NCBI RefSeq assembly: GCF_003231495.1
Contig: NZ_PQWO01000019.1
Location: 1-32,000, forward strand
DNA: 32,000 nucleotides
Direction: 5' to 3'
From: Acaryochloris thomasi RCC1774
GTDB lineage: Bacteria; Cyanobacteriota; Cyanobacteriia; Thermosynechococcales; Thermosynechococcaceae
Made by a program: the position numbers and the translations under genes. The notes below the pieces were generated by a model that was not told the origin of the DNA, did no database searches, and saw only the letters and a program-made list of their open reading frames with translations. The stretch's first letter is position 1. Every line of letters starts with the position of its first letter. This document shows positions 1,793-18,907 of this stretch, piece by piece.

Positions 1793-2449
1793 ATGCAAAA
1801 TAAAGATAAGAGCCGCAGATTTTTTTTGAAGCTGGGTCTTGCAAGCACAGCCTCGGCAGTCTTTGGGAAGTCGGTGCACGGACAATCCATCCTAAAAATC
1901 AATCCGACTCCATCCGAAATTGAAGGTCCTTTTTATCCTGTCATGGCCCAAAAGGACAAAGATTTCGACCTGACTCAAATTGAAGGAAAAGAAGGAAAGG
2001 CCAAAGGCAAAATCATCACTATCGAAGGGCAAATTACTGACACCAATGGCGTCCCCCTTGAGGATGCCACCGTAGATCTATGGCAGGCTAACAGCGCAGG
2101 CCGTTACCGCCATCCCCGTGACCCTAACGACGCACCACTCGATCCCAGCTTTCAAGGCTGGGCAATTGTTCCCAGTGGCAGGGAGGGGGGATTTCGCTTT
2201 CAGACAGTTTATCCAGGTACTTATCCAGCAGCAGCAGGCTGGACCCGCCCGCCGCATCTCCATTTCAAGGTGAGTAAATTGGGCTACGTCGAATTAATTA
2301 CTCAGATGTACTTTCCCGATCATGCTCTCAATGAGACAGATTTGCTGCTGCAAAGTAAATCAACAGAAGAGCAAAGTCTAATGATTGCTAAGCTATCGAG
2401 CAAAAGTCCTGAAACCTATCGCTACAATATTGCTCTATCAAAGGCCTAA
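1793..2449 (+). CDS. intradiol ring-cleavage dioxygenase family protein (protocatechuate 3,4-dioxygenase beta-like) with a Tat-type signal peptide
   Basis: N-terminus KSRRFFLKLGLASTASAVFG is twin-arginine-like. Family-typical motifs are present: EGPFYP, GRYRH, FQTVYPGTYP, RPPHLHFKV. Confidence 0.8.
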   Translation: MQNKDKSRRFFLKLGLASTASAVFGKSVHGQSILKINPTPSEIEGPFYPVMAQKDKDFDLTQIEGKEGKAKGKIITIEGQITDTNGVPLEDATVDLWQANSAGRYRHPRDPNDAPLDPSFQGWAIVPSGREGGFRFQTVYPGTYPAAAGWTRPPHLHFKVSKLGYVELITQMYFPDHALNETDLLLQSKSTEEQSLMIAKLSSKSPETYRYNIALSKA

Positions 2450-2474
2450 TTAAGCCTGTCGTCGGTAAGCAAAG

Positions 2475-2921
2475 ATGAACGGTCAAAACATCAAAGCGAT
2501 CTGGATAAAGCGAGCCAAACGCGGCCCAATGGATGCTGTCCAGCAAGCAGAAGCGATCGCAAGTCAAGGACTCGTAGGCAACGCCAACCAGCGAGGGCGG
2601 CGACAGGTCACTCTTCTTGATGCAGCCGTATGGCAGCAAGTCATGCAAGAACTAGGTGTGAGCCTAGATCCATCAGTGCGTCGTGCCAATATATTGGTGA
2701 GCGGCATCGACCTAGCAAAGAGCCGCAAGCGCGTCCTACAGATTGGAGAGTGTCGCATACGGATCTTCACTGAAGCCAAACCCTGCGAACGGATGGACGA
2801 AGTTTTACCAGGGCTGCAAGCTGCTCTCTACCCAAACTGGCGCGGCGGAGCCTGTGGTGAAGTGCTGCAAGGTGGAACTATCAGTGTTGGCGATCATGCT
2901 GTCTGGGCAGACACACGATAA
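2475..2921 (+). CDS. MOSC domain-containing protein
   Basis: 148 aa, resembling small single-domain MOSC proteins (...RQVTLLD..., ANILVSGIDL, KPCERMDEV with the conserved Cys). Lies 25 nt after the dioxygenase. Confidence 0.75.
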   Translation: MNGQNIKAIWIKRAKRGPMDAVQQAEAIASQGLVGNANQRGRRQVTLLDAAVWQQVMQELGVSLDPSVRRANILVSGIDLAKSRKRVLQIGECRIRIFTEAKPCERMDEVLPGLQAALYPNWRGGACGEVLQGGTISVGDHAVWADTR

Positions 2922-2976
2922 GCAGATCTAGTTTGGGCATTCTCATAATCAGAGCAATGTTTTTGAGGCCACCTCT

Positions 2977-3720
2977 ATGACGGTACCTTCAGGCTGGGAA
3001 CTCCCCCAAGCAATAAAACGACGACTAGGCCAAAAAGAAGCAGGCAAGCAACGGGCAATGGTAGCAGAGGAGCATTTGTTACTGATCCTGCACAAAGTCC
3101 CAAAGCAAGGAAGTCGCAAACGCACAGGTCTCTTCTTCTGGCGCACCCCAAACGGCAGTTGGAAATATAGCGGGGGTGGTGATGGATTGGGAAAATTACG
3201 CAGCCATGTCAAAGCTTACAGTGATGCAGAACAGGCACTGACAGCTCAGTATGAGCAAGCTGCTACAGCAGCAGACTACTTTCATCTGCTTGAAAATATT
3301 GGCCCTCTAAGTCGAGCGACAGCAAACCTTTATGCAGCATTGCAGGCCGCGCGAGAAGCCATTTCTGACGATCTCAACATCATTGACCTTCGAGATGCGG
3401 CGATTGATCTGAGCCGAACCCTAGAACTACTTTATGACGACACAAAAAATGCCCTGGATTATGCGCTAGCTAAGCAGGCTGAAGAACAAGCAAGGTTAAG
3501 TCAAAAGTCTGTACGAACGGCACAACGCCTGAATATCCTAGCTGCGATTTTCCTGCCACTGACAGCTCTTTCAAGCGTTTTTGGAATGAATCTCCATAGT
3601 GGGCTAGAGGATCAGTCCACCTCTATCTTTTGGATAGTACTGATCGCGGGTATCTTCCTTGGATTTGCCACAAGAGACTGGGTTCTACGGGGCAAAGTTA
3701 GACCTTCAAACTCTAAATGA
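2977..3720 (+). CDS. short CorA-like divalent-cation transporter family protein (GMN motif)
   Basis: C-terminus RLNILAAIFLPLTALSSVFGMNL...IFWIVLIAGIFLGF gives TM1-GMN-loop-TM2, the CorA signature. A helical cytoplasmic region lies upstream. At 247 aa it is shorter than canonical CorA. Confidence 0.65.
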   Translation: MTVPSGWELPQAIKRRLGQKEAGKQRAMVAEEHLLLILHKVPKQGSRKRTGLFFWRTPNGSWKYSGGGDGLGKLRSHVKAYSDAEQALTAQYEQAATAADYFHLLENIGPLSRATANLYAALQAAREAISDDLNIIDLRDAAIDLSRTLELLYDDTKNALDYALAKQAEEQARLSQKSVRTAQRLNILAAIFLPLTALSSVFGMNLHSGLEDQSTSIFWIVLIAGIFLGFATRDWVLRGKVRPSNSK

Positions 3721-3784
3721 GTTGAGACTAGAGCTTTGGGTTAAGATCAGACCTAATTCCTGCGTCACCAGAGATCAAGAACCC

Positions 3785-3985
3785 ATGAGTGATTTCTTCA
3801 AAAACGTCTTACTCTACCCGCGTTTTTTAGCGGGTATCATGCTAGGTGTGCTGCTGTTCGTCCTCAAGCCCTTGGCACCTTTTATGAAAAATCCGGTGAC
3901 TGCTGTTGCCCTGATTGGCTTTTTTATAGGTGGATTTGCCTTTGTTACCTTAACCTTACGCGCCATGCTGGGCTATCCGATCTAG
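3785..3985 (+). CDS. small two-TM membrane protein, Ycf33/DUF751-like
   Basis: Internal ATG at 3785 of track ORF 3659-3985; the upstream part overlaps the CorA-like gene. Sequence MSDFFKNVLLYPRFLAGIMLGVLLFVLKPL... matches my recollection of the cyanobacterial/plastid Ycf33 pattern. Confidence 0.55.
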   Translation: MSDFFKNVLLYPRFLAGIMLGVLLFVLKPLAPFMKNPVTAVALIGFFIGGFAFVTLTLRAMLGYPI

Positions 3986-4048
3986 ACTAGGCAGGGATCC
4001 TTGAGAAAAAGAGGATCGGGCGATGTGCAGTAAGAGAGGAATTCAATC

Positions 4049-4453
4049 ATGGCCACTGGACGTCGAGTTTCAAAGGTTGCCGAGCTGATCCGGCGGGAAG
4101 TCAGTCAGATGCTGCTCCATGAACTCAAGGATGAGCGCGTTGGGGCCGGTATGATTAGCGTCACCGATGTAGATGTTTCCGGCGATTTACAGCACGCGAC
4201 CGTGTTCGTCAGTATTTATGGTTCTGAAGAAGCCCAGGCCGAAACAATGGAAGGGCTTGATTCAGCCGCAGGCTACGTACGGCGAGAGTTAGGAAAGCGG
4301 GTTCGCCTGCGCCGCTCTCCCGAAATTATTTTTAAGGAGGATCGCTCCCTTGAGCGCGGCATGGGCATGGTCTCTTTGCTCAATAAAATCGGTGCAGAAC
4401 GCAAGCCCGAAGTAGCGGAAGATTCTACTCCTTCTCTAGAAACAGAAATTTAG
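4049..4453 (+). CDS. rbfA: ribosome-binding factor A
   Basis: [18 protein letters not shown]...[25 protein letters not shown] is a typical RbfA sequence. Preceded by a GAGAGGA Shine-Dalgarno-like sequence. Confidence 0.9.
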
Positions 4454-4465
4454 GCAGATTTAGCT

Positions 4466-6064
4466 TTGACTCAGCTACCCGAATTTTCCGAGCTATCTTT
4501 AGCAGCTCAAGTTGCTCAGATGCTGGTGGTGCGAGCCTCTGGTCATCTTTTTGACCATCAGATTCAATATCCGAGCTGGGAACCCCAAGCAAAACCGCTC
4601 CGCCACTGGCTTCAGGATCTCGGGGTTGGGGGCGTCATTCTTCTAGGAGGGAGCGCGGCTGAGATTGCGCTGCGCTGTCAACAGCTCCAGGAATGGTCGA
4701 AGCTACCGCTGTTCTTGACGGCTGACATCGAAGAAGGCGTGGGCCAGCGATTTTCGGGCGCGACCTGGTTCCCGCCACCGATGGCGCTGGCTGCAATCCC
4801 TGACCAAGAACAGGCGCAACGATATGCCGAACAGATGGGGGCGGTTACGGCTCAAGAGGCTCTAGCGATTGGCCTTAATTGGGTGTTGGCTCCGGTCGTA
4901 GATGTTAACAATAACCCCAAGAATCCCGTGATTAATGTGCGGGCCTTTGGTGATGATCCGCAAACGGTGGGGAAACTGGCGGCGGCTTTCATTCGCGGTG
5001 CTCAAGCTCATCCAGTGCTGACGACGGCGAAGCATTTCCCAGGGCATGGTGATACGGCGACTGACTCCCACCTTGATCTGCCGGTGGTGCCCCATACAAG
5101 GGAGCGACTGCAAAAAGTTGAGTATCCGCCGTTTAAAGATGCGATCGCATCCCAGGTTGACAGCATTATGTCGGCGCATTTGCTGATTCCAGAACTGGAC
5201 AAAAACTATCCGGCAACACTCTCCGACCGCATCTTGACGCAGGAGTTGCGGCAAAATCTTGGGTTTGAGGGATTGATTGTCACCGATGCATTGGTGATGG
5301 GTGCGATCGCAAATCAATACGGCGACAACGAAGCTGCAGTCCTAGCGGTGGAAGCCGGGGCCGATGTCTTAATGATGCCCGCCGATCCACCCGGAGCCAT
5401 AAAAGCGATTTGCGAAGCTGTCGAGACAGGCCGCATTCCAGCAGACCGCATTCACGCATCTCTAGAACGAATCTGGCAGGCCAAGAAAAAGCTCACCGCT
5501 CTTAGCGTTGAAGAGAACGATCATCAACATGCCTGGGAACTCCAGCCTCCACCCCCCATTAATCTCAATCCCCTCGCGGCCCCCGCAGCCCTCACAGCAA
5601 CGGCTGAGATCCTCAAAGCCTCTAGCAAAGTTCAGGGGCAGATCACACCATCCAATCGCCAGCGCACCGTAATTATTGTCGATGACCTGCTTAATTGCGC
5701 GGTTCTCAGTCGCAAGGCACCCGCCGTCGATATCCCACAAAAGCAGGGCTATCAGGTCCAGCTCGTTGATAGTCACACGCCCGATCCAGCTCTGAACAAC
5801 TCGGAATTTGAGGCGACGCTACTGCAGCTTTTTGTCCGAGGCAATCCCTTTCGCGGCAGTGCCGAACAGTCTCAAGTCGTCCAGACCTGGCTAGACTTTT
5901 TGCTCAATGCCCAGCAGCTTCAGGGATTAGTAATCTATGGCAGTCCGTACATCTACGAGCAATTGAAGCCCCAAGTCTCTCAGGGAACGCCCACAGCATT
6001 TTCCTACGGACAAATGCCTCTGGCTCAAACCCTCGTCTTAGAGCAGTTATTTCGTGAATCCTGA
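4466..6064 (+). CDS. nagZ: glycoside hydrolase family 3 beta-N-acetylhexosaminidase
   Basis: GH3 N-terminal domain motifs are present: GQMLVVRASG-like region, VDVNNNPKNPVINVRAFG, KHFPGHGDTATDSHLDLP, VTDALVMGAI. TTG start is proposed by the track; the exact start is uncertain. Confidence 0.85.
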   Translation: MTQLPEFSELSLAAQVAQMLVVRASGHLFDHQIQYPSWEPQAKPLRHWLQDLGVGGVILLGGSAAEIALRCQQLQEWSKLPLFLTADIEEGVGQRFSGATWFPPPMALAAIPDQEQAQRYAEQMGAVTAQEALAIGLNWVLAPVVDVNNNPKNPVINVRAFGDDPQTVGKLAAAFIRGAQAHPVLTTAKHFPGHGDTATDSHLDLPVVPHTRERLQKVEYPPFKDAIASQVDSIMSAHLLIPELDKNYPATLSDRILTQELRQNLGFEGLIVTDALVMGAIANQYGDNEAAVLAVEAGADVLMMPADPPGAIKAICEAVETGRIPADRIHASLERIWQAKKKLTALSVEENDHQHAWELQPPPPINLNPLAAPAALTATAEILKASSKVQGQITPSNRQRTVIIVDDLLNCAVLSRKAPAVDIPQKQGYQVQLVDSHTPDPALNNSEFEATLLQLFVRGNPFRGSAEQSQVVQTWLDFLLNAQQLQGLVIYGSPYIYEQLKPQVSQGTPTAFSYGQMPLAQTLVLEQLFRES

Positions 6065-6068
6065 AAAT

Positions 6069-7253
6069 ATGACTCATTCGTCTGTAAAGACACAAACGCT
6101 AGAAGAACATCGGCAGCAGTTTCCCGCCCTGCAGAATAAACTCTATTTCAACTATGGCGGCCAGGGTCCACTCTCTCAGCCTGCTTTGGATGCCATTCAA
6201 TCAGCGTATATTGAAGTCCAGGAAATTGGACCCTTTACTGGGGCTTCTAATAAATGGATTACGCAGCAGGTTGAAGGAGCTAGGGATGCGATCGCAACCG
6301 AACTCAACGTCGCCTCCAGCACCATTACCCTCACCGACTCCGTTTCCACCGGCTGCAACATCGCCCTCTGGGGCATTAATTGGAAAGCCGGAGATCACCT
6401 ACTTCTATCAGACTGCGAACATCCCAGCGTGATCGCCACCGCCCAACAGCTCCAGCGTCGCTTCGGCATCGAATTTTCCACTTGCCCTATCCTAGAAACC
6501 CTCAACGCAGGTGATCCCATCGCAGCCGTCCTTGAACACCTGCGTCCTCAGACCAAAATGCTGGCGATCAGCCATATTCTTTGGAACACTGGCCAAGTTC
6601 TGCCGCTACAGTCCCTCATTCAGGCGTGCCGACAGCAAAAACCCGAAATTTTAATCCTAGTGGATGCCGCTCAGTCCGTGGGCGTGCTCCCCCTCTCCCT
6701 CGCAGAACTAGATGTTGATTGCTACGCCTTCACCGGCCACAAATGGTGGTGCGGTCCCGACGGCCTCGGTGGACTCTACGTCAGTCCCAACGCTTTAGAG
6801 AAGCTAGAACCCACTTACATGGGCTGGCGCGGCGTCACCGTTAGTTCCTCCGGTTACCCCACAGGCTGGCAACCCGATGGCCGCCGCTTTGAAATTGCCA
6901 CCTCAGCCTATCCTCTGTTTGTCGGCCTGACGGCAGCCCTAAAGCATCAGCAGCAATGGGGGACCGCCCAAGATCGCTATCAGCGCATCCTACAGCTGAG
7001 CCAAAAACTATGGCAGCAGATGCGTCAAATCCCTGGTATCCATTGTCTTCGCTCTGCTCCCCCTGAATCGGGCTTAGTTTCCTTCCAATGTGCAGAACAC
7101 CGAAAGCTGGTTCAAGACCTCGAACACCATCAGATGATGGTCCGGTTAATTGCCGATCCCCAATGCGTACGGGCCTGTGTCCACTACTTAACACTAGACT
7201 CCGAGATCGATCAGCTGACAGCGCAAATTTCTCAAATCATGAGTACGCGATAA
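6069..7253 (+). CDS. aminotransferase class V-fold PLP-dependent enzyme (cysteine desulfurase/epimerase-like)
   Basis: Contains DAAQSVG and the FTGHKWWCGPDGLGGLY PLP-lysine motif. ATG at 6069 lies 4 nt after the nagZ stop. The track's GTG start at 6054 is the alternative. Confidence 0.8.
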   Translation: MTHSSVKTQTLEEHRQQFPALQNKLYFNYGGQGPLSQPALDAIQSAYIEVQEIGPFTGASNKWITQQVEGARDAIATELNVASSTITLTDSVSTGCNIALWGINWKAGDHLLLSDCEHPSVIATAQQLQRRFGIEFSTCPILETLNAGDPIAAVLEHLRPQTKMLAISHILWNTGQVLPLQSLIQACRQQKPEILILVDAAQSVGVLPLSLAELDVDCYAFTGHKWWCGPDGLGGLYVSPNALEKLEPTYMGWRGVTVSSSGYPTGWQPDGRRFEIATSAYPLFVGLTAALKHQQQWGTAQDRYQRILQLSQKLWQQMRQIPGIHCLRSAPPESGLVSFQCAEHRKLVQDLEHHQMMVRLIADPQCVRACVHYLTLDSEIDQLTAQISQIMSTR

Positions 7254-7678
7254 TATGCCCACTCTCAGACCTCTCCTCGGCCTAAATCTCTCAATTGAAG
7301 TCACAAAAGTACAACATCTCCGTAGAGTCACAGAACTTTAGCAAGGGAATTTACATAAGTTCCGTGTAATTACTGAAGAGACTCTACGTGAATATTCGGT
7401 ACTGTTTGATTACAGGCGTGACGTAATCCAATCATGCTTGTTTCAGCACCTTCATGACATTTTCGTCTTGACTTGCTGAGTTTAAGGGGGGATTAAGTTC
7501 ATCGGCCACACCACCGTGGCCATTCATCTTTACTCATCCCAACAGGGACCGTTATATCTTTCTGCTTTGCTGATAGCTCTACGCTGATTGTCAAAGCATT
7601 TTGGCTTGTCAACATTTTCGGCCTCAGGGACTCAATATTCACCCCACTGCTCATACCCACCTCACCCTCTCAAAAACT

Positions 7679-7852
7679 ATGATGACCGAAAAAAGCATTA
7701 GAGATACCCGTGGCAACGGCCATGAAGCCTCAGCAGAAAGCAAACAGCTCGCCATCAGCTTGAAGTTTCACTATGCTGAAACGCTACGCAACATGACCCT
7801 ACAAGAAACGCTTCAGACCATCGCCGAAGTGTGGGAAACCTGCAATCGTTAG
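7679..7852 (+). CDS. possible small protein (57 aa), unknown function
   Basis: ATG-ATG start inside track ORF 7601-7852. Ends just before an 11-bp inverted repeat shared with the ridA 3' end. No family recognised, so coding status is uncertain. Confidence 0.3.
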   Translation: MMTEKSIRDTRGNGHEASAESKQLAISLKFHYAETLRNMTLQETLQTIAEVWETCNR

Positions 7853-7893
7853 CGATTTGCGGTGGCCTATTTCAGGAATTGGACAACTCGTTG

Positions 7894-8280
7894 CTAATGG
7901 GCCACCGCAACACAGTCAATTTCCACCAACACATCCTTCGGGAGCCGAGCCACCTCAACACAGGCTCGGGCAGGGGCAGTTGCCTCATCAAAGTACTGTG
8001 CATAAATCTGATTGACCGTCGAGAAATCATTCATATCGGCCAGAAAAACCGTTGTCTTCACCACCTGCGGCCAACCCACACCTGCTGCTGCTAGCACTGC
8101 CGCCAGGTTCTTCATCACTTGCTCAGTTTGTTGGCTCACGCCTGTCCCCACGATCGTCCCATTGACGGGATCAAGCGCAATTTGCCCAGAGACAAAGATC
8201 ATCCCAGCAGCTTGAACAGCCTGATTGTAAGGCCCCACGGGAGCCGGAGCATGATCGGTATGGATAATAGAGTGAGACAT
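7894..8280 (-). CDS. ridA: RidA family reactive-intermediate deaminase (YjgF/TdcF/L-PSP)
   Basis: APAPVGPYNQAV...GMIFVSGQIALDP...QTEQVMKNL.AVL.AAG...VVKTTVFLADMNDF..VN.IY..YF...PARACVEVARLP is a canonical RidA sequence. Confidence 0.9.
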   Translation of the reverse strand: MSHSIIHTDHAPAPVGPYNQAVQAAGMIFVSGQIALDPVNGTIVGTGVSQQTEQVMKNLAAVLAAAGVGWPQVVKTTVFLADMNDFSTVNQIYAQYFDEATAPARACVEVARLPKDVLVEIDCVAVAH

Positions 8281-8445
8281 AGTGCTTCGATAGTCAGAGC
8301 ACTACTCACAATAGCATTCGCTTCCTCTGCGATAATAAGCAACAGAGGCAGGCTAAAAGTATCTGCTGAGGACAGTTCTCCTTGCGCAATCGCTACTCGC
8401 TATGGGAGCATCCTACTTTCGCTCAAGTATTGCACGGCCCTCACC

Positions 8446-8541
8446 TTAAGTCCCTCTCCCAATTTTGGGCGAGGGACTTTGAGTACTTTTATCTTGTTCC
8501 CCTCTTCTTCCAAGGTTGGAAGAAGGGGCTGGGGAATGAGG
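8446..8541. repeat. double-hairpin small dispersed repeat (MITE/REP-like), copy 1
   Basis: Hairpin 1: AAGTCCCTC..GAGGGACTT (8448-8456 / 8471-8479). Hairpin 2: TTCTTCCAA-GG-TTGGAAGAA plus C/G extension (about 8499-8528). By-eye identity of about 75-80% to 22824-22920. Confidence 0.6.
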
Positions 8542-8613
8542 GCCAAGTGCAACTGGGATACTTCCATCGCTGCTAGCAAAGGCATGATTCAGCCCACTCA
8601 ATGAGCACAAAAC

Positions 8614-9600
8614 CTATTGCGACTCTAGCCAGCGAGCCGCATCTTTAGCGTGGTAGGTCAAGATTAGGTCTGCGCCCGCTCGCTTAAAGCTGGTCAGCGT
8701 TTCCATGACCACTCGTTCTTCGTCAACCCAGCCGTTGAGGGCTGCAGCCTTCACCATCGAATACTCACCCGACACGTTATAGGCCGCCACCGGCACATTG
8801 CAGGCCTGCTTTACCTGCCAAATGATATCCATATAGGCCAAGGCAGGTTTCACCATCAGCATGTCGGCTCCTTCGTGGAGGTCTAGCTCGATCTCTTTGA
8901 TCGCTTCTCTAGAATTAGCCGGATCCATCTGATAGGTGCGGCGGTCGCCAAACTGAGGCGCTGAATCCGCCGCATCTCGGAAAGGTCCGTAGTAGGCAGA
9001 AGAGTACTTAGCGGCATAGGAAAGAATCGGCAAATCCTCAAATCCAGAGGTATCTAGCCCCTCTCGAATCGCTTGCACAAACCCGTCCATCATGCCCGAA
9101 GGAGCGATGATATCGGCCCCAGCCTTAGCTTGAGACACTGCCGTTTTCTTCAGCAGCTCCAGCGTCGGGTCGTTGAGAACTCGCCCCGTCAAGTCGCCTG
9201 TTTCTAAATAGCCGCAGTGACCGTGCTGGGTATACTCGCACAGACAGGTATCGACAATCACCACCAGATCCGGCACCGCCTCTTTGACGGCTGCCGATGC
9301 CTTTTGCACAATGCCGTGATCATGCCACGCCCCTGTCGCTTCAGAGTCCTTATCATCTGGAATCCCAAACAGAATTATAGATGGGATGCCAAGGTCGTAG
9401 ACTTCTTTAGCTTCTTCTACAATCTTGTCCACCGATAGCTGATAGACTCCCGGCATCGATGTCACTTCTTGGGAAACGCTTTCCCCTGGTACCGCAAAGA
9501 GAGGATAGATCAGGTCACTAGTGGTGACGACGGTTTCTTGAACCATGCGACGCAGCTGCGGATGACTGCGGAGCCTGCGGGGACGATGTTTGGGGAACAT
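8614..9600 (-). CDS. hemB: porphobilinogen synthase (delta-aminolevulinic acid dehydratase), Zn-type
   Basis: [20 protein letters not shown] start at the internal ATG (9600) of track ORF 8614-9669. Cys-rich metal site [14 protein letters not shown]. Active-site region [11 protein letters not shown]. Confidence 0.9.
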
Positions 9601-10152
9601 GATTTTTAGCAACAATACGGTAGATAGGTTGAGCTTTGCTGAAGAAATGCAGAGTAGATGCGACAGCAAAAAGACAACACCCTATACTCTACTGTTGCAC
9701 TCGACCCCTTTCAATTCCGCGATTGTTTCTATATATTCACAGATCGATTTCAGAGTCCCTTGACGATCCATTTCTCCGAGGCTAGGATGGACGCCTACTC
9801 GGCACTGATCCCCCCTAAGTCGCCCTGTAGCTGGCTCTCGAAAGGGTACCTTGCATCGAAAGGGCAAGACACAAATTAGCAGGCCTAAGCTTTACAGTAT
9901 GGTGGCTGCTAGTGCCGAAGGGCCTTTACAAAATTTTTCTCAGACGAAGAGTGGTTACCCTTAACTCTCAAGTGGGTCATCATTCAGCATTTAATCCAAA
10001 AGCCTTTTCGTTGGGAGCTTCCGATGCTATCCTGACCCCGAGTTGAGTGCTGTAGCGTAGCTGTCTGGATTGAAAGCCTACTTCTTGTGAACAGGTCAGT
10101 TGAGTCTTCTATATAGTTTAGAGCAGCAGAAAAGACAGAAACATCTCGAAGT

Positions 10153-10199
10153 TTTTCTTCTCTTGGGGGCACTCTAAAAGCACCCCCAAGAGAAGAAAA
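10153..10199 (+). promoter_or_regulatory. 17-bp perfect stem-loop ending 5 nt upstream of the YHYH-protein start codon
   Basis: TTTTCTTCTCTTGGGGG (10153-10169), 13-nt loop, CCCCCAAGAGAAGAAAA (10183-10199). The 3' arm covers the purine-rich region where a ribosome-binding site would sit. No U-tail on either strand. Confidence 0.4.
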
Positions 10200-10204
10200 T
10201 CCCT

Positions 10205-11299
10205 ATGCACGTTAGCCAGGAGTGTCTCGTGAGCATCGGTCGGCAATCGGGTCGATTACTGCTGTCGGTTATTCTTACTTTTTCCACTAGCGGAGAAACC
10301 TACGGTGACACAACTTCTCACAATCACAAGTATTCAACGCAAAAACTGAGTCAGGCTTCTGTCAATACGAATCAGGTCAGAATCCAACTGGAAGGGGACA
10401 GCCGCTACATATACGCTAACGGCATTCCAGATCATACCCATGGTTCATTTCCCAATCCTGGCAATCCCAATAGCATCTCGCCGCAAACCTATCGATTTCG
10501 AGTACCGACAACCCCCAAATTAGCAACCCAAATAACGGCACTGCGTGGGAGCCTGTTTGGTGTCGCACTCAATGGTATTCCTTTGGATCCAGGAACAGCA
10601 GAGGTTTGGACATCTCAGGGACCCAGCCATGCTTTTAGTGCACAGAATAAAGCAGAATGGCGCTATGAAGCCCTATCAGGCCGCATTAATCTTGGGATTG
10701 ATCAAAGCCATGCTCACGTTCAGCCAACGGGTGCTTATCATTACCACGGCTTGCCGCTAGGTCTTATCCAGCAGCAAGGTCGCGATCAGCCCATCATCTT
10801 CATCGGGTATGCTGCAGATGGCTTTCCTATCTACGCTTCATCTGGAAACACTGCAGCAGTCTCAAGCTACCGAGTTAAGCAAGGACAACGCCCCAGTGGC
10901 CCAGGAGGACGCTATGATGGCACCTTTGTTCAGGACCACGAATTTATAGCTGGGCTAGGCAATCTCGATCAGTGTAATGGACGTCAGGGAAAAACCCCTG
11001 AGTATCCACAGGGGATCTATCACTACTTCATCACGACGACGTTTCCTTTCATTCCCCGTTGTTTTCGCGGCACTCCTGATATCAGCTTTAGACATCAAAA
11101 ATCTGCTGGACTGAGACAGTTTCCATCCCGTCCAAAGTCACGTCCTGCGGCCCACATAAAGCAACAGCCCCAACAACGCTTAGATCAGAATCATCGGCCA
11201 TCAGCAGGCGGGCGGCGACCGCCCTTTCCGCCTTCTGGGCATCATCATCCGTTTTCGCCACCTCACGGTTCCCCGCATCGGCATCATCCCCCTCACTAG
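10205..11299 (+). CDS. YHYH domain-containing protein with a C-terminal His/Pro/Arg-rich low-complexity tail
   Basis: Contains the AYHYHGLP motif, GIPDHTHG, GYAADGFPIY, the YHYF..T..FPFIPRCFRG ending typical of the YHYH family, and an N-terminal hydrophobic segment. Tail: ...RRPPFPPSGHHHPFSPPHGSPHRHHPPH. Confidence 0.75.
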   Translation: MHVSQECLVSIGRQSGRLLLSVILTFSTSGETYGDTTSHNHKYSTQKLSQASVNTNQVRIQLEGDSRYIYANGIPDHTHGSFPNPGNPNSISPQTYRFRVPTTPKLATQITALRGSLFGVALNGIPLDPGTAEVWTSQGPSHAFSAQNKAEWRYEALSGRINLGIDQSHAHVQPTGAYHYHGLPLGLIQQQGRDQPIIFIGYAADGFPIYASSGNTAAVSSYRVKQGQRPSGPGGRYDGTFVQDHEFIAGLGNLDQCNGRQGKTPEYPQGIYHYFITTTFPFIPRCFRGTPDISFRHQKSAGLRQFPSRPKSRPAAHIKQQPQQRLDQNHRPSAGGRRPPFPPSGHHHPFSPPHGSPHRHHPPH

Positions 11300-11390: not shown

Positions 11391-13142
11391 TTGTCTAGCT
11401 ATCAGAGAGCCATCACAGACGTAATGGAACAGGCGATTACTAAAGCTTATTCAAGATGTCAGCCGCCCGAGCAATTTAAGAACTTAGGTATGGACCTTTC
11501 TGCGATGGATAGGGCGAGACAATCTTTCTCTGGAGGGCGGTTACCAAAGATTGAGTTCCCCGGAGGGGCCGTTCCACTCAGTTCATCGCTTTATATCAAG
11601 CGTTCTAATATTGAGCAGCTAGCCTATCAAGAGCTTGACCAACCCGGTAGTTTGATCCGCATCCAGGCTCCTCAAGGAATGGGGAAACGCTCGCTTCTAT
11701 TGCGATTAATGGCCTATGCCAAGGTTCAGGATTACCAGACGGTCAGGGTCAACTTTCAGACGGCAGAGCAATCCGTTTACACAAGCTTAGATAAATTTCT
11801 CCGCTGGTTTTGTGCGAATGTAGCACGGCAGTTGAAGCAAGCAGCCTGTCTCGATCAGTACTGGGATCCAGAGATTGGGGCTAAGCTAAGCTGCACGCTC
11901 TATTTTGAAGAGTATTTACTGGAAGCCATTGAGAGTGAGATCGTTTTGGCTCTCAGTCATGTCGAGCAGATCTTCGAGCACCCTAAAATTGCGCAAGAAT
12001 TTTTGCCCATGCTGCGGTTCTGGCATGAACAGGGTAAACAGGCTGAAGCATTTCAGAAATTACGGCTGATTGTCCTCCATGCCACAGATGTCTATGTGCC
12101 TCTGCAGGTGCATCAGTCTCCGTTTAACGTTGGGCTACCGCTGCAGCTATCGCCGTTCTCCTTAAAAGATATTCAGACTTTGGCGCATCGCCACGGACTC
12201 GATTGGGACCAAAATCTGGCTCGACCGCTCATGGAGATGGTTAGCGGCCATCCGTATCTGGTGAGGCTAGCAATGTACCACATCAGCCAACAAAATATGA
12301 CCTTAGCAAAGGTGTTGGAAGAGGCTCCTACTCAGGGGGGGATTTATAATCAGCATCTGAGAGGGCTGCTAAAAACGCTGCAGCAACAGCCGGCTCTAGC
12401 GCAAGCTTTCAAAAAAGTCGTCACTTCTATCGATAGCGTGGAGCTTGAGACAATCTTGGCCCACAAGCTTAATCGTCTAGGGCTTGTACTTCTGAGAGGG
12501 AACCGATGCATCATTTCATGTGAGCTTTACCGCCTGTACTTTGCACAGCAAAAGTTAGGTCCAGTCGATGAGTGGCGGATTCGGCTTGAGCAGCTTGAGC
12601 AAGAGAATATTCATCTCAGAGCATTAGTGAACCTAGACGGTCTCACACAGATTGCAAATCGTCGTTCTTTTGATGATTATCTTGATTCTCAGTGGAAGAA
12701 TCTGACGGAGATCAAGGCTCCACTGGGTCTACTTTTACTAGATGTTGATCACTTCAAGCAATACAACGATACCTACGGCCATCCAGCAGGGGATCAGTGC
12801 CTGCAGCAGGTAGCTCAAGTTCTCCAGCGCTGTGCCAAACGCTCTTCTGATTTGGTCGCTCGCTACGGTGGTGAAGAGTTCGCCGTGGTTCTACCCCTCA
12901 CAAATGCTCAAACCTCAGCCAGACTCGCCGAGGAAATTCGGATTCAGCTAGGATTGCTTGAGATTGCCCACGAAACCTCTAGCCTTGAGGCGGGCATTGT
13001 GACGGTCAGTATTGGCGTTATCAGCGTTGTTCCTGGATCGGAGGGTAGCCCTGAAAAGCTGATTCAGGCTGCAGATAAGGCACTCTATCGAGCTAAAAAG
13101 GAAGGGCGAGACCGCATCTACACTCACTCCTCCTCAGGATAG
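11391..13142 (+). CDS. AAA-like (AAA_35/STAND-type) domain protein fused to a GGDEF diguanylate cyclase domain
   Basis: The N-terminal roughly 380 aa are paralogous to the next gene. P-loop-like APQGMGKRS (K99). A coiled-coil stalk is followed by a GGDEF domain (about 12630-13120) with GGEEF at 12867-12881 and RSSD five residues upstream. Start is uncertain: TTG at 11391 or ATG at 11424. Confidence 0.85.
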   Translation: MSSYQRAITDVMEQAITKAYSRCQPPEQFKNLGMDLSAMDRARQSFSGGRLPKIEFPGGAVPLSSSLYIKRSNIEQLAYQELDQPGSLIRIQAPQGMGKRSLLLRLMAYAKVQDYQTVRVNFQTAEQSVYTSLDKFLRWFCANVARQLKQAACLDQYWDPEIGAKLSCTLYFEEYLLEAIESEIVLALSHVEQIFEHPKIAQEFLPMLRFWHEQGKQAEAFQKLRLIVLHATDVYVPLQVHQSPFNVGLPLQLSPFSLKDIQTLAHRHGLDWDQNLARPLMEMVSGHPYLVRLAMYHISQQNMTLAKVLEEAPTQGGIYNQHLRGLLKTLQQQPALAQAFKKVVTSIDSVELETILAHKLNRLGLVLLRGNRCIISCELYRLYFAQQKLGPVDEWRIRLEQLEQENIHLRALVNLDGLTQIANRRSFDDYLDSQWKNLTEIKAPLGLLLLDVDHFKQYNDTYGHPAGDQCLQQVAQVLQRCAKRSSDLVARYGGEEFAVVLPLTNAQTSARLAEEIRIQLGLLEIAHETSSLEAGIVTVSIGVISVVPGSEGSPEKLIQAADKALYRAKKEGRDRIYTHSSSG

Positions 13143-13145
13143 GCC

Positions 13146-16100
13146 ATGCGCTATCAAATTGGCGGTAGCCTGACGGCCAACGCACCCAGCTATATCGCAC
13201 GACAGGCGGATGAAGATTTATACGAAGCGCTACGGCAGAATTCATTCTGCTACGTTCTTAATGCTCGCCAGATGGGCAAATCATCGCTGTTGGTGAACAC
13301 CCGACATCGGCTGCAGCAGCAGGGCTACCGATGCGCCGTGATCGACATGACGAATCTGGGGAGCGAAAATATCTCTCCGCTGCAGTGGTACAAGGGCATC
13401 ATTAAAGATCTCTGCCGCAGTTTTAAGCTCCGCAAAGTTTTTGATTTCCAAAGCTGGTGGCAAGAAGAAGCAGATATTTCACTACTCCAGCGCTTCAGTC
13501 GCTTCATTGGAGATGTTCTGCTGCCTCAGTTTCCTGATCAGAACCTGGTGATTTTCATTGATGAAATTGACAGCATTCTGAGCCTGCCGTTTTCGGTCGA
13601 TGACTTTTTTGCCCTGATCCGCTTTTGCTATAACCAGCGAGCGATTGATCCCAGCTATGAGCGGATTAATTTTGCGATTTTTGGGGTGGCTACGCCCTCG
13701 GATTTGATTTGCGATCGCAACCGCACCCCCTTCAATATCGGCACCTCCATTCACCTAAGCGGCTTTACCCTAGAGCAGTCTCAAACCCTAGCTCAGACCC
13801 TACCGCTCTATAAGGGCAGCAACTCTGAAATCCTCAAAGCCGTCCTTCACTGGACCAACGGACAGCCATTCTTAACGCAAAAGCTCTGTCAGCTCGTGAT
13901 TCAGTCTAGCCAAGATGCAGTAAGCGGTGGCTTATCCATCCCGCCAGGAACAGAGAGCTACTGGGTCGAGCAAATCGTTCAGCAACACATCATCTCAGAA
14001 TGGGAATCGCAGGATGAGCCAGAACATCTGCGAACAATCCGCAATCGAGTGTTGATGGACCAAGGAGCCGTGGGGCGTCGTTTGGGACTGTATCAGCAGA
14101 TTCGTCAAGGCAAGACTGTTCCCAGTGATGACAGTCGTGATCAAGTTGAATTAGTGCTGTCAGGTTTAGTCATTCGGTCTTATGGGCAGCTCCAGGTCAA
14201 AAATGAAATCTATGCAGCCGTCTTTGATTTAACCTGGGTGGAGAATCAATTGGCCCAACTACGGCCCTATGCAAGACTACTAGCGACCTGGGTCGAGTCA
14301 GCAAAAACAGATGAATCTCGGCTGCTGCGCGGGCAGGCCCTCAAAGATGCTCAGCTTTGGTCTCAGGGGAAACGGCTGAGCGATCTGGACTATCAGTTTT
14401 TAGCAGACTCAGTGGAGTGCGATCGCAACCAAGTTCAGCAAGCGCTCGAAGCCGATCGCGTCAAAGCCATCGAAGCCCAACTGATCCAGGAAAAGAGAGT
14501 CGTTAAACAACAGCGCCGCTTTTCAGTCCTATTGACCCTTGCTTTTTTAGGAGCATTGGGCTTGGGGGGAGCCACCTTCCTGCAAAATCGGCAGGCCCGT
14601 CGCCATGCCCAAACGGCTAGGGTCAGCGAAGTTAAGGCACTGATGTCCTCCGCTGAAGGAAACTTCGACTCTCATCGTCAACTAGAGGCCTTAACTCTGG
14701 CTATTTCAGCGACGCGTAAAGCGCAATTGCTAAAAGACAAACCACTACAGCAGCAGAGCCAAACCGTTCTTCGCCAGACTCTTTACGGCCTAGAAGAAGC
14801 AAACCGTTTGCCCACCGTCACTGGAGCCAGAGCCGTTTCGACGAGTCCTGACGGTCAATTCATTGTCAGTGGCCTATCCAACGGTTTGATCTACCTTTGG
14901 AGACAAGATGGAACGGTCGTCAAGACGTGGACCGGACACTCATCCAGGATTAACGACATTACCTTCAGCCCAGACCAGCAATACATACTCACAGCTTCTG
15001 CCGATCGGACCGTCAAAATGTGGCGGTTAGACGGCACTCTTATTCGGACCTTCTCTGGCCATAGGGAGGGAGTCACGGGTGTTCAAATCAGTCCTGATGG
15101 CACCTTGATTGCCTCTAGTTCCTCCAAGCAAGGCATCAAATTATGGGGCGTTGATGGAACCCTAGTTCAGGACATTCCCAAGAAAGGAGCAGCGGGCTTT
15201 AGCCCAGACAGCCAATGGTTCGTCACCTCTGGAAAGAATCATCCACTACAGATTTGGGGACGAGATGGCAAACTCAACAAAACACTCCCCCATGTGGGCC
15301 GGCCAATTCATCGCCTCACGGTTAGTCCAGATGGGCAACTGATTGCTGCAGCCTGCATTGATAAAACAGTTCGACTCATTCATATCGATGGTCGTTCCTA
15401 CAAAACGTTTACGGGACATCAGGCTCTGGTCCGCGATGTTACCTTCAGTCCTGATGGTCAACAGGTTGCATCGGTGGCAGGCGACAAGACCGTCAAGGTG
15501 TGGCAAACGCACGGCGAACTGCTGAAGACCTTTGAGGGACACCGGGCATCGGTATGGAGCATTGATTTCACCCCAGACGGGCGGCAAATTGCCTCAGCTT
15601 CAGAGGATGGCACCGTTCGGCTCTGGCAGCTTCAGAATCCGCTCCTGACCCAACTCGTGGGCAATACTGATTTCATTCCGAACCTAGCAATGAGTGCAGA
15701 TGGTCGATCCGTGGCAACAGTGGGTCCTGGCAGCGGCATTTTGCTGTGGAAGCAGGGACCAAAGGGGAAATTTTCACCCTTGCCGTACCTCCACATCAAG
15801 GGTCCAAAAGCCCATAGAGCTCCTATTCACGGGGTTGCTTTTACCCCCGATGGGAAGCAATTTGTCACGGTTGCGCGGGACGGCCTAGCGAAATTTTGGG
15901 ATCTAAACGGCACTCTTTTGCAAACATTGAAGGTGGATAAACCACTGTGGCGAGTGGCCTTTAGCGCCGATGGAGAGAGGGTTGCGATCGCAACCAGCGA
16001 CAAAACTGTCAAACTCTGGCAGCGGAATCAACAGGGGCAATTCCCCAATCAACCGACTCAGGTTCTCAAAGGCCATACTGCGATGCTCCGCACCGTCACC

Positions 16101-16652
16101 TTTAACGACAGAGATGACTTACTCGCCTCCGGCTCAGCAGATACAACGGCCAAAATCTGGCACCGCGATGGTTCCTTAAAGGCAACCTTAAAGGGACATA
16201 CTGATACGGTCCGCGGCTTAGCCTTTAGTCCCACCTCACCTCACCTTATCTCTGCCTCAAATGACAATACACTCAAACTCTGGCAGCTAGACGGAACCCT
16301 AGTCAGAACATTTATCGGTCACGATTCTAGCGTCCGGGACGTTGCTTTCCATCCCGATGGAAAGCTATTAGCTTCTGCATCAATGGACGGTACTGTAAAG
16401 GTTTGGCGCACGGATGGAACGTTGCTGCGTTCTTTAACCCACGATGCTGCAGTGCGATCGCTCACCTTTAGCCCAGACGGTCAAACTATCATTTCCGCAG
16501 GGGAAGACCAAACCGTACATCTCTGGAACTGGTCAAAAATTAAAGCTTTAGATGAACTGAACTATGCGTGTACGTGGGCGCACAACTATCTCGCCCATAA
16601 CTTAAAGGATGAACAGAGCAATCTATGTCCATCCTCTTCAGAAGGGAATTAG
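13146..16652 (+). CDS. AAA-like (AAA_35/STAND-type) NTPase with coiled coil, one hydrophobic helix and 14 WD40 repeats
   Basis: Walker A ARQMGKSS (G44-K45-S46). Walker B VIFIDEID (D139-E140). Hydrophobic helix FSVLLTLAFLGALGLGGATFL (aa 459-479, nt 14520-14582). 14 WD40 units of the form SPDG..ASAS.D.TVKLW (nt about 14818-16530). ATG lies 3 nt after the upstream stop. Confidence 0.9.
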   Translation: MRYQIGGSLTANAPSYIARQADEDLYEALRQNSFCYVLNARQMGKSSLLVNTRHRLQQQGYRCAVIDMTNLGSENISPLQWYKGIIKDLCRSFKLRKVFDFQSWWQEEADISLLQRFSRFIGDVLLPQFPDQNLVIFIDEIDSILSLPFSVDDFFALIRFCYNQRAIDPSYERINFAIFGVATPSDLICDRNRTPFNIGTSIHLSGFTLEQSQTLAQTLPLYKGSNSEILKAVLHWTNGQPFLTQKLCQLVIQSSQDAVSGGLSIPPGTESYWVEQIVQQHIISEWESQDEPEHLRTIRNRVLMDQGAVGRRLGLYQQIRQGKTVPSDDSRDQVELVLSGLVIRSYGQLQVKNEIYAAVFDLTWVENQLAQLRPYARLLATWVESAKTDESRLLRGQALKDAQLWSQGKRLSDLDYQFLADSVECDRNQVQQALEADRVKAIEAQLIQEKRVVKQQRRFSVLLTLAFLGALGLGGATFLQNRQARRHAQTARVSEVKALMSSAEGNFDSHRQLEALTLAISATRKAQLLKDKPLQQQSQTVLRQTLYGLEEANRLPTVTGARAVSTSPDGQFIVSGLSNGLIYLWRQDGTVVKTWTGHSSRINDITFSPDQQYILTASADRTVKMWRLDGTLIRTFSGHREGVTGVQISPDGTLIASSSSKQGIKLWGVDGTLVQDIPKKGAAGFSPDSQWFVTSGKNHPLQIWGRDGKLNKTLPHVGRPIHRLTVSPDGQLIAAACIDKTVRLIHIDGRSYKTFTGHQALVRDVTFSPDGQQVASVAGDKTVKVWQTHGELLKTFEGHRASVWSIDFTPDGRQIASASEDGTVRLWQLQNPLLTQLVGNTDFIPNLAMSADGRSVATVGPGSGILLWKQGPKGKFSPLPYLHIKGPKAHRAPIHGVAFTPDGKQFVTVARDGLAKFWDLNGTLLQTLKVDKPLWRVAFSADGERVAIATSDKTVKLWQRNQQGQFPNQPTQVLKGHTAMLRTVTFNDRDDLLASGSADTTAKIWHRDGSLKATLKGHTDTVRGLAFSPTSPHLISASNDNTLKLWQLDGTLVRTFIGHDSSVRDVAFHPDGKLLASASMDGTVKVWRTDGTLLRSLTHDAAVRSLTFSPDGQTIISAGEDQTVHLWNWSKIKALDELNYACTWAHNYLAHNLKDEQSNLCPSSSEGN

Positions 16653-18082: not shown

Positions 18083-18907
18083 GTGGAGCACACAATGGCA
18101 ATTGTTGGCGGAATTTTGCTTGTAGTCAGTGTTGTGTTGTTCTTTGTCCAACGCAATGCCAAGCAAAAGTTAGCCAGTATTCGACAGGCGCGTCACGGCA
18201 CAATTGCCGATCTGCAGCGCACAGCTCAAGAGATTGCGGCTGAAATCGGATCTGGGAGCTGGCGCGACTATGTCAAAGTTCGTGGCGATATCCAGTGCGC
18301 TCGCCCTCTGACCTCTGAACTAAAGCAGGTTCCCTGCGTCTACTACAAAATGACGGTGGAGCGCGAGTACGAAGAAACCGTTACCAAGCGCGATGACGAA
18401 GGACGAACGAGACAAGAAACGGAACGAAGCTCTGAAATCGTCTCTCAGAATCAGCGATCCACGCCTTTTATGCTGAGCGACAGTACAGGCGAGATTCTGG
18501 TCAATCCAAGCGATGCGTCAATTGAAACGGTTTCAATTCTCGATGAGTTTCGGGCAGAGTCATCAATGAATAGCTCCCTCTCCTTTGGGGGCTTTTCGCT
18601 ATCAATCGGAGGGGATAGAGCCGGTCGTCGCACCTTGGGCTATCGCTATCGAGAATCTATTTTGCCATTGGACCAAAAAGTTCTGGTCCTAGGACAGGTA
18701 ACGGACGCTCAAGGACCATCCGGCAGTTATGAGAACACCTGCCTAGCCATTGAAAAACCCACCGAGAAGAAGCAGAGATTTATAGTTTCTCTGAAATCAG
18801 AGGAGCAACTGCAGCAGGGCGTTTCAAGTACGGCGAAGTACGCTTTTTACGGCATGCTTTCGACTTTCGTCGCCGGTACTATTTTGCTGGGCGCTGGACT
18901 TGCATAA
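18083..18907 (+). CDS. GIDE-domain membrane protein (bacterial homologue of the MUL1/GIDE family fold)
   Basis: N-terminal TM (IVGGILLVVSVVLFF). Followed by ...PLTSELKQVPCVYYKMTVEREYEE... and PFMLSDSTGEILVNPSDASIE, a pattern typical of GIDE (PF12483-like). C-terminal TM. Start is GTG 18083 or ATG 18095. Confidence 0.6.
   Translation: MEHTMAIVGGILLVVSVVLFFVQRNAKQKLASIRQARHGTIADLQRTAQEIAAEIGSGSWRDYVKVRGDIQCARPLTSELKQVPCVYYKMTVEREYEETVTKRDDEGRTRQETERSSEIVSQNQRSTPFMLSDSTGEILVNPSDASIETVSILDEFRAESSMNSSLSFGGFSLSIGGDRAGRRTLGYRYRESILPLDQKVLVLGQVTDAQGPSGSYENTCLAIEKPTEKKQRFIVSLKSEEQLQQGVSSTAKYAFYGMLSTFVAGTILLGAGLA

Follow-up and report, generated by a model that had tools for sequence, protein, structure and literature searches.

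Paralogous AAA_35 NOD modules place a predicted diguanylate cyclase and a putative WD40 sensor on the two proteins of a recurrent cyanobacterial gene pair

In a 32,000-nucleotide stretch of Acaryochloris thomasi RCC1774 DNA (contig NZ_PQWO01000019.1, positions 1 to 32,000; hereafter the window), an earlier reading of the letters alone, here called the original prediction, had singled out two neighbouring genes, A and B, as a coupled pair of paralogous STAND-type NTPases that puts a WD40 sensor and a GGDEF output on two polypeptides. We followed up this pair computationally. Open reading frame (ORF) A (11391-13142) and ORF B (13146-16652) lie on the forward strand and are separated by 3 nt (TAG gcc ATG), so that coordinates, strand and junction were all as proposed. 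ORF A matches WP_199464482.1 at 100% identity and comprises 583 aa when counted from the TTG at 11391; ORF B, of 1168 aa, is 100% identical to WP_110988201.1 (C1752_07255). An AGGA sequence is found 6 nt before the ATG of B, within the last part of the A coding sequence, and we infer that the two genes are translationally coupled. The true start of A is probably the ATG at 11490 (M34) and not the TTG at 11391, because RefSeq calls a protein of 550 aa, the spacing between A and the preceding YHYH gene is 165 nt in relatives, and homologues begin just before the EFPGG motif. In GenBank (PZD71253.1) A is given as 572 aa and misnamed 'Phytochrome-like protein cph2'. The features of the two genes are as follows; residue numbers of A are counted from the TTG, and AF2 stands for AlphaFold2.

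11391..13142, + strand: gene A, encoding an A-type AAA_35 NOD, a coiled-coil stalk and a predicted GGDEF diguanylate cyclase (ORF, Pfam, AF2)
11559..12560, + strand: A-type NOD (nucleotide-binding domain, helical domain, winged helix), A residues 57-390 (Pfam AAA_35; hhalign span 58-390)
11676..11693, + strand: Walker A of A, GMGKRS, with Arg in place of Ser/Thr after the Lys
11946..11969, + strand: Walker-B-equivalent strand of A, LALSHVEQ, with Ser-His where the family has Asn/Asp-Glu and B has Asp-Glu
12243..12263, + strand: GxP motif of A, SGHPYLV, in the helical domain; G286 and P288 are invariant in the A family, and the motif aligns with GQPFLT of B
12570..12632, + strand: helical stalk between NOD and GGDEF, A residues 394-414 (21 residues; AF2 helix H394-414)
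12630..13115, + strand: GGDEF domain, A residues 414-575 (Pfam GGDEF 173 bits, TIGR00254 167 bits)
12840-12851, + strand: I-site RSSD (RxxD), A residues 484-487, five residues upstream of GGEEF
12867-12881, + strand: GGDEF active-site motif GGEEF, A residues 493-497
13140..13148, + strand: A/B junction, TAG gcc ATG, with 3 nt between the ORFs
13146..16652, + strand: gene B, encoding a B-type AAA_35 NOD, a linker with coiled coil, one transmembrane (TM) helix and 14 WD40 blades (ORF, Pfam)
13161..14243, + strand: B-type NOD, B residues 6-366 (Pfam AAA_35, hhalign, AF2)
13266-13286, + strand: Walker A of B, RQMGKSS, canonical
13548-13574, + strand: Walker B of B, VIFIDEIDS, with the canonical Asp-Glu
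13857-13877, + strand: GxP motif of B, NGQPFLT; G239 and P241 are invariant in the B family
14316..14519, + strand: conserved linker of B, SRLLRGQAL..W..GK.LSDLDYQFLA.S, followed by a long coiled-coil helix toward the membrane (near-invariant columns 385-422; AF2 helix H413-484)
14520..14582, + strand: predicted single TM helix FSVLLTLAFLGALGLGGATFL, B residues 459-479 (Kyte-Doolittle 19-mer score 2.04)
14826..16532, + strand: 14 WD40 blades (two seven-bladed propellers), B residues 561-1129, the putative sensor (Pfam WD40 384.6 bits)

Comparison of the N-terminal modules showed that A and B are paralogous over the whole NOD. Pfam assigned both to AAA_35 (PF14516; gathering score 27 bits, exceeded by A and B alike), A with 460.2 bits over residues 57-385 and model positions 2-330 of 331, and B with 113.5 bits over residues 7-253 and model positions 4-245, a partial match that reaches positions 4-330 in B-type relatives. 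BLASTP aligned A with B at 22% identity over 245 aa (E = 3e-13), and profile-profile comparison with hhalign gave 99% probability and about 20% identity (E = 8e-18) over A 58-390 and B 6-366, a span that extends the paralogy across the nucleotide-binding, helical and winged-helix parts. The similarity is thus far beyond chance and the modules do not belong to unrelated families, a point that the original prediction had left to profile searches; its estimate of 350-380 aa for the paralogous region was about right against the ~330 aa aligned by hhalign, and the motif pairs it had quoted are real and fall at family-invariant positions. Identity to A was 45-57% among A-type NODs, identity to B was 50-67% among B-type NODs, and only 20-27% was shared between the two groups; on these values A-type and B-type NODs are two distinct large cyanobacterial subfamilies. 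All named homologues were cyanobacterial except one AAA_35-GGDEF protein (P0011) labelled as an Actinomycetota metagenome-assembled genome, and given that every other named match was cyanobacterial, this label is probably a case of misbinning.

Inspection of the nucleotide-binding motifs of A revealed a degenerate site. The GKR in its Walker A was found in A. thomasi only among the homologues examined, the family consensus being GK[ST]S and the sequence in Acaryochloris relatives GKSS, while Walker B is degenerate throughout the Acaryochloris clade, with QH or SH in the three relatives at loci L165, L169 and L170. The A-type family overall keeps GK[ST] and usually has N-E at Walker B. With GKR in Walker A and S-H at Walker B, the A NOD of A. 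thomasi probably does not hydrolyse ATP and may have poor affinity for it, and any hetero-oligomerisation with B would therefore have to work differently. The C-terminal half of A was found as proposed, a coiled-coil stalk (the AF2 helix 394-414) leading into a GGDEF domain (Pfam, 414-575). The guanine-specifying residues N459 and D468 are present (DVDHFKQYND...GD), the motifs are conserved in the Acaryochloris clade, and the domain is 45-48% identical to that of WspR, so that A is predicted from its motifs to be an intact diguanylate cyclase with an I-site. The best structural matches of stalk and GGDEF were the coiled-coil GGDEF proteins WspR (WspR-GCN4) and DgcB, and these features therefore fit activation via stalk-mediated dimerisation. 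A reading of A as a Hypr-GGDEF protein (cGAMP synthase), judged by the Hypr-GGDEF signature, was ruled out, as the guanine-specifying Asp is present (GHPAGD).

The corresponding site of B is canonical. Residues G44, K45, S46, S47, D139, E140 and D142 were invariant among 26 homologues, and judging by these motifs the B NOD looks ATPase-competent. The coiled coil, the single hydrophobic helix and the 14 WD40 repeats that had been read in the remainder of B were all recovered, the helix at residues 459-479 and the repeats as 14 [ST][PA]D[G]-type signatures at ~41-aa spacing. The helix had been taken as incidental and, although its presence stands, this role does not: a hydrophobic 19-mer (Kyte-Doolittle 1.6 or higher) was found ~62 aa past the NOD in 106 of 113 B-type proteins. 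Its flanks carry a net charge of +3.2 on the N-side and +0.55 on the C-side in the B-type family, which by the positive-inside rule favours an N-in orientation, and its position is that of the first TM helix of CHASE2-type family members, in which the CHASE2 domain and then a TM cluster follow (TM-CHASE2-TM). This is the canonical layout of the extracytoplasmic CHASE2 sensor domain. Given the conserved helix, the positive-inside bias and the match to the first helix of CHASE2-type members, B is probably N-in/C-out with its WD40 array periplasmic or external, in analogy to the CHASE2 proteins; WD40 domains have likewise been proposed to be extracellular in cyanobacterial p20-TM-WD40 orthocaspases (PMC7475262). 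The WD40 region diverges faster than the NOD (29-45% versus 53-67% identity). Hypervariable, recombining WD40 repeats of the kind found in fungal NLRs were considered and rejected, as B contains no tandem repeat at the DNA level.

We examined the family to which the shared module belongs. The AF2 models of A (mean pLDDT 87) and of the B NOD (mean pLDDT 83.5) show a nucleotide-binding domain, a helical bundle and a beta-hairpin winged-helix domain. The fold was placed via the B NOD model alone because the search with full-length A was dominated by its GGDEF domain; a sequence search of solved structures returned GGDEF relatives only, plus a spurious short P-loop match to RecA. The best Foldseek matches of the B NOD, all with low TM-scores (0.3-0.5), were the archaeal AAA+ protein SSO1545, Cdc6/Orc1, ORC subunits and RuvB, the matches including the heteromeric ORC and the Orc1-1/Orc1-3 heterodimer as well as the remodelling AAA+ proteins RuvB and HslU, and MalT and NRC2 appeared at ranks 16 and 48, respectively. 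Weak Pfam co-matches of the NODs were AAA_16, NPHP3_N and AAA_22. A tripartite NOD, a GxP motif and the lack of the AAA+ arginine finger are said to have been set out by Leipe and co-workers in 2004 as the defining features of STAND proteins. Both families have an invariant GxP and a winged helix, and no invariant arginine (the box-VII position) was found between the sensor-1 strand and beta-5 in either; a canonical Walker A with an acidic Walker B is found in B (GKSS and DE), A having GKR and S-H, and the effector, NOD and sensor of a STAND protein, joined there on one polypeptide, are here divided between two genes. The original designation as STAND-type NTPases thus holds for GxP, winged helix and missing arginine, but not for the closest folds, which are those of Cdc6/Orc1 and ORC. 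Since the best folds are Cdc6/Orc1, ORC and SSO1545, with MalT and NRC2 far down, we did not file AAA_35 as STAND; on the models, it appears to sit on the border between initiator AAA+ proteins (ORC/Cdc6) and STAND and is not clearly a member of the latter.

To assess conservation of the pair, we surveyed 80 genome loci with an A profile, which gave 75 assessable A loci (43 with GGDEF and 32 without), and 80 metagenome loci with a B profile, 61 of them assessable. B adjoined A in 43 of the 75 A loci: an adjacent B was found for 16 of the 43 A-GGDEF genes (15 downstream, 1 upstream) and for 27 of the 32 A-type genes without GGDEF (24 downstream, 3 upstream). Seen from the other side, A was adjacent in 40 of the 61 B loci, directly upstream on the same strand in 36, and the adjacency of AAA_35-GGDEF and AAA_35-WD40 genes on which the original prediction depended is therefore recurrent from both directions. 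B lies nearly always downstream of A on the same strand, and the order A-then-B is held across orders of cyanobacteria. The distance from the A stop to the B start was 10 nt or less, or an overlap, in 16 of 72 pairs and 11-50 nt in 14; in the Acaryochloris clade all four A genes were paired, with spacers of 4-15 nt at L165, L169 and L170. A link between pairing and the Walker-B state of A was tried and rejected, as N-E and D-E both occur in solo and in paired genes. Distances among A NODs were correlated with those among their partner B NODs (Mantel r 0.87 for the 72 pairs and 0.74 for 49 non-redundant pairs), and 0 of 999 permutations reached either value. Two Nostoc pair lineages, each tight internally (0.05-0.10), differ by 0.43 in A and 0.41 in B, indicating that a pair is duplicated, and then diverges, as a unit. 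Grouping by the effector class of the A partner was likewise visible among B proteins, with distances for CHAT of 0.28 within versus 0.45 between classes. At five loci (L062, L066, L087, L088, L093) one A gene is followed by two to four tandem full-length B-WD40 genes; such arrays may offer a single output protein a choice of different sensors.

The survey also showed that outputs vary on A-type and sensors on B-type proteins. A-type outputs comprised GGDEF, CHAT, Trypsin_2 with TIR, a C-terminal TIR, a Ser/Thr kinase and a class III nucleotide cyclase; some A-type proteins have only a ~110-aa N-terminal extension with weak, sub-threshold similarity to HTH domains, for which an HTH output is a suggestion from the sequence. 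The C-termini of B-type proteins in the metagenome sample were WD40 in 61, only a short membrane tail in 14, CHASE2 in 7 and another long region in 4 (one of them TPR); seven further proteins were cut off by contig ends. Among the proteins surveyed, a TM helix or repeat sensor was never seen in a paired A-type protein, nor an enzymatic output domain in a B-type protein. The division of output and sensor claimed for A. thomasi thus generalises, to varied outputs on A-type and to WD40, CHASE2 or TPR on B-type proteins, and GGDEF is one among several outputs that can replace each other while the two NODs stay constant. On the strength of these comparisons, A and B belong to a widespread, undescribed cyanobacterial gene-pair family with swappable outputs on the first protein and swappable sensors on the second. 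The literature searched did not describe an AAA_35 pair, the string search for 'AAA_35' being swamped by unrelated tokens, and the main surveys of conflict systems, STAND proteins, WD40 proteins and orthocaspases do not mention the family. That the split architecture matches no characterised system is in keeping with these results, as neither a literature description nor a PADLOC model was found.

Two further arrangements of the modules were observed. In several Nostocales and in Desertifilum the B-type NOD forms the C-terminus of a giant protein encoded upstream (L071, positions 5213-11062, and similarly L001, L080 and L084); the layout Pkinase-AAA_16-GAF-...-AAA_35 was confirmed for L071 (1950 aa) and L001, an A-type gene directly follows the giant gene in L071, L080 and L084, and cytosolic sensor modules may thus be a further means of driving B-type NODs. 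On a Tara Oceans contig (L168, positions 1945-5157) an AAA_35-GGDEF gene is followed after 30 nt by a gene for AAA_35 with a class III nucleotide cyclase (Guanylate_cyc), so that two output-type A genes stand in tandem with no B-type gene between them.

Upstream of A, on the same strand, the window contains a riboswitch of the class that binds cyclic di-GMP (c-di-GMP) and the gene of a YHYH-domain protein.

9760-9788, + strand: promoter-like site, upstream of the aptamer
9835..9919, + strand: c-di-GMP-I (GEMM-I) riboswitch aptamer (Rfam RF01051, 44.4 bits versus a gathering score of 35, full model 1-87)
10205..11299, + strand: gene of a YHYH-domain protein, C1752_07253 (Pfam YHYH 213.6 bits)

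The ORF 5' of A is 100% identical to C1752_07253, and this gene, the first of the same-strand string YHYH, A, B, begins 285 nt downstream of the riboswitch; one gene string thus brings together a c-di-GMP sensor and a predicted c-di-GMP synthase. The order YHYH, A (GGDEF), B (WD40) is kept in L165, L169 and L170. YHYH was absent from the other surveyed A/B loci, this synteny being limited to the Acaryochloris clade, and the riboswitch was not found in the syntenic relatives L169 and L170, where the upstream spacers measure only 63-128 nt. We therefore rejected riboswitch-YHYH-A-B as a general arrangement: YHYH belongs to the Acaryochloris clade only, and the riboswitch, among checkable loci, to A. 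thomasi only. No canonical terminator was found 3' of the aptamer, and the fold of the leader was not significantly more stable than that of shuffled sequences (z = -1.87). The YHYH-A and A-B intervals likewise yielded no terminator, so that a c-di-GMP feedback loop is possible. A perfect ~17-bp hairpin (TTTTCTTCTCTTGGGGG...CCCCCAAGAGAAGAAAA; window 10150-10199, + strand) ends 6 nt before the YHYH ATG and lacks a T-run behind it; it could block the start of translation or belong to the expression platform of the riboswitch. At its C-terminus the YHYH protein has a low-complexity tail rich in His and Pro (…PPFPPSGHHHPFSPPHGSPHRHHPPH), which might bind metal, and homologues of the protein are widespread in Planctomycetota, Acidobacteriota and cyanobacteria. 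The wider flanks of the locus are made up of the housekeeping genes hemB, ispG and amt and of a gene for an ABC-F protein. The ORF just past ispG (window 18083-18907, + strand) encodes a protein with a hydrophobic segment at its N-terminus and a GIDE domain (PF12483, 'E3 ubiquitin ligase', 138 bits); the name of this domain is eukaryote-associated and unusual for a cyanobacterium.

We put at about even the chance that A and B are two halves of one membrane-associated NOD signalling switch. In such a switch B would be a single-pass N-in/C-out receptor, with its ATPase-competent NOD and coiled coil on the cytoplasmic face and its two WD40 propellers facing the periplasm or exterior, where they would bind a ligand; A would be its soluble paralogue, whose NOD, stripped of the catalytic Walker residues, is joined by a short stalk to a diguanylate cyclase. 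The steps that we propose are drawn from the known behaviour of NOD/AAA+ switches and of the stalk-type GGDEF enzymes WspR, PleD and DgcB. Ligand binding to B would lead to nucleotide-dependent assembly of B NODs; A NODs would co-assemble with these or dock on them, in the manner of dead subunits in ORC/RFC or of helper NLRs in paired-NLR complexes; the stalks and GGDEF domains of A would thereby be brought into productive dimers that make c-di-GMP; and the RxxD I-site would limit the output. In A. thomasi, the c-di-GMP made might feed back via the c-di-GMP-I riboswitch at the head of the YHYH-A-B string. The role of the system would most likely be to convert an envelope or external cue into a second-messenger response, and sister modules would convert such cues into proteolysis, NAD-type signalling or phosphorylation.

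Several observations weigh against a two-protein switch. In 27 of the 43 assessable loci, including all Microcoleus and Coleofasciculus copies, the A-GGDEF homologue has no adjacent B, so that A-type proteins are not obligately dependent on B; likewise 21 of the 61 B loci lack an adjacent A, and presumably neither type needs a neighbour, each working either alone or with partners whose genes lie elsewhere. Shared species history inflates correlations of this kind and so partly confounds the co-divergence. The TM flanks of the A. thomasi B protein itself are symmetrical in charge (+4 on each side), and its topology therefore rests on the family statistics and the CHASE2 analogy. The A NOD may bind no nucleotide, in which case it would be a constitutive scaffold and not a switch subunit, and B could equally inhibit A rather than activate it. 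We infer the physical interaction or hetero-oligomerisation of A and B, the direction of regulation and the binding of a ligand by WD40 by analogy with known systems. The solo loci on both sides, together with the tandem B-type arrays that lack extra A genes, speak for the view that the two are independent neighbours, A being a self-contained NOD-regulated or constitutive cyclase and B a separate receptor with an output of its own, and their adjacency a matter of co-regulation or of an old tandem duplication. We consider this unlikely: the paralogues are only ~20% identical, yet the A-then-B order is kept across cyanobacterial orders with tiny spacers; A and B co-diverge, also between paralogous pair lineages within one genus; and as B-type proteins were never seen with an enzymatic output, nor paired A-type proteins with a sensor or TM helix, each of the two looks incomplete alone.

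The original prediction had also framed the pair in antiviral terms, a framing that the housekeeping genes around the A. thomasi locus do not favour. As an anti-phage or programmed-cell-death conflict system, B would detect an invader or damage molecule and A would raise a c-di-GMP alarm that activates an effector encoded elsewhere, as in CBASS or type III CRISPR. In favour of this, CHAT, TIR, a trypsin-like protease and a PD-T4-6-like kinase, all classic effectors of immunity or cell death, occur in sister modules. Like the conflict systems that Kaur et al. 2020 (PMC7159879) described, the family is found mainly in multicellular cyanobacteria. Sequence change is faster in the sensor region than in the NOD, and the tandem B arrays suggest sensor diversification. 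However, neither NOD subfamily matches a PADLOC model: in PADLOC-DB v2 no match was found for A, B matched a WD40-type repeat model only, and the sister modules matched only through their fused CHAT, TIR, protease and kinase domains, never through their NODs. The locus, among hemB, ispG and amt, stably keeps its gene order within the genus, phage proteins inside the cell would escape a sensor that is probably extracytoplasmic, c-di-GMP is a general lifestyle messenger, and the WD40 repeats show no homogenisation at the DNA level; a conflict system thus appears quite improbable. It is also possible to read B as a negative regulator or chaperone-like remodeller whose ATP-hydrolysing NOD keeps A inactive or monomeric until a ligand on WD40 frees A to self-associate via its NOD and stalk. 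This would accord with the intact hydrolytic site in B but not in A, with the solo A-GGDEF proteins, which evidently work without B and suggest that A can self-assemble, and with the likeness of the fold to the remodellers noted above. We hold it to be very unlikely, given that no pore-loop or hexameric-unfoldase signature was found, that the closest folds are initiator/STAND-type switches and that the conserved membrane tether suits a receptor better than a remodeller.

Returning to the two-protein switch, its extension to the whole family is more tentative, and we consider it possible, at somewhat less than an even chance, that these genes represent a large undescribed class of cyanobacterial transmembrane two-protein NOD receptors, in which a membrane-bound, ATPase-active NOD with an extracytoplasmic sensor (WD40, CHASE2 or TPR) nucleates an often degenerate cytosolic output NOD, and in which the A. 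thomasi copy turns an external cue into c-di-GMP with riboswitch feedback. Bacterial NOD/STAND switches are known as single-chain cytosolic receptors. If the proposal is true, it would describe a NOD receptor that is split over two co-evolving paralogues, tethered to the membrane and compatible with at least six outputs. As a prokaryotic counterpart of apoptosomes and of sensor/helper NLR pairs that works from the outside in, such a receptor would link their mode of assembly with signalling across the membrane and with the control of c-di-GMP. It would also give a function to hundreds of cyanobacterial genes annotated as 'AAA-like domain-containing' and 'WD-40 repeat' and offer a tractable bacterial model of a sensor NOD activating a catalytically dead helper NOD; the GGDEF version, with its easily measured output, would be a natural reporter for finding the WD40 or CHASE2 ligand.

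Comparison with known systems places the pair between several of them. The iSTAND component of the vWA-MoxR ternary systems (Kaur et al. 2020, PMC7159879) is likewise an inactive NOD-type partner in an effector-variable multi-gene system, and these systems are enriched in multicellular bacteria (PMC7159879); they differ in their ATPase family and partners (MoxR, vWA), and that survey mentions neither AAA_35 nor CHASE2 (PMC7159879). The p20-TM-WD40 and p20-CHASE2 orthocaspases (PMC7475262), from the same phylum, share a cytoplasmic output, one TM helix and a WD40 or CHASE2 region proposed to be extracellular, but are single proteins without a NOD, whereas here a NOD pair stands between sensor and output. 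The stalk-type cyclases WspR, PleD and DgcB resemble A in their GGEEF motif, in the RxxD I-site five residues upstream and in a helical stalk that controls dimerisation; unlike in these enzymes, the input of A is a 330-aa NOD and not a receiver domain, and its activation is proposed to proceed via NOD (hetero-)oligomerisation, not phosphorylation. ORC-Cdc6, archaeal Orc1-1/Orc1-3 and RFC have the closest predicted fold and also consist of paralogous subunits, some of which lack Walker B or hydrolysis and serve as structural partners, but they act on DNA and have arginine fingers, whereas A and B lack a conserved box-VII arginine and a DNA-replication context and are fused to signalling domains.

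Single-chain STAND/NOD receptors such as Apaf-1/CED-4, bacterial Avs, bNACHT and MalT have in common with the pair a NOD of nucleotide-binding, helical and winged-helix domains with GxP, a WD40 or TPR sensor, swappable effectors (caspase-like, TIR, protease, kinase) and an expected ligand-triggered oligomerisation. Unlike in these receptors, effector and sensor are here on two paralogous NOD proteins, the NOD is Pfam AAA_35 and not NB-ARC, NACHT or AAA_16 and has its best folds in Cdc6/ORC, a TM helix lies between NOD and sensor, and one of the two NODs is catalytically degenerate. Paired NLRs (plant RGA4/RGA5 and RRS1/RPS4, animal NAIP-NLRC4) also share out sensing and execution between two paralogous NODs, the sensor nucleating assembly of the executor. 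They are eukaryotic, cytosolic and of the NB-ARC/NACHT type, and the plant pairs are arranged head-to-head, whereas A and B are co-directional genes 3 nt apart, with a membrane-anchored sensor protein, a second-messenger cyclase as output and a predicted physical pairing. The plant pairs are genetically linked and co-evolving, and linked, co-evolving paralogous NOD genes are also what we found for A and B, both in their adjacency and in the correlation of their distances (Mantel r 0.74-0.87).

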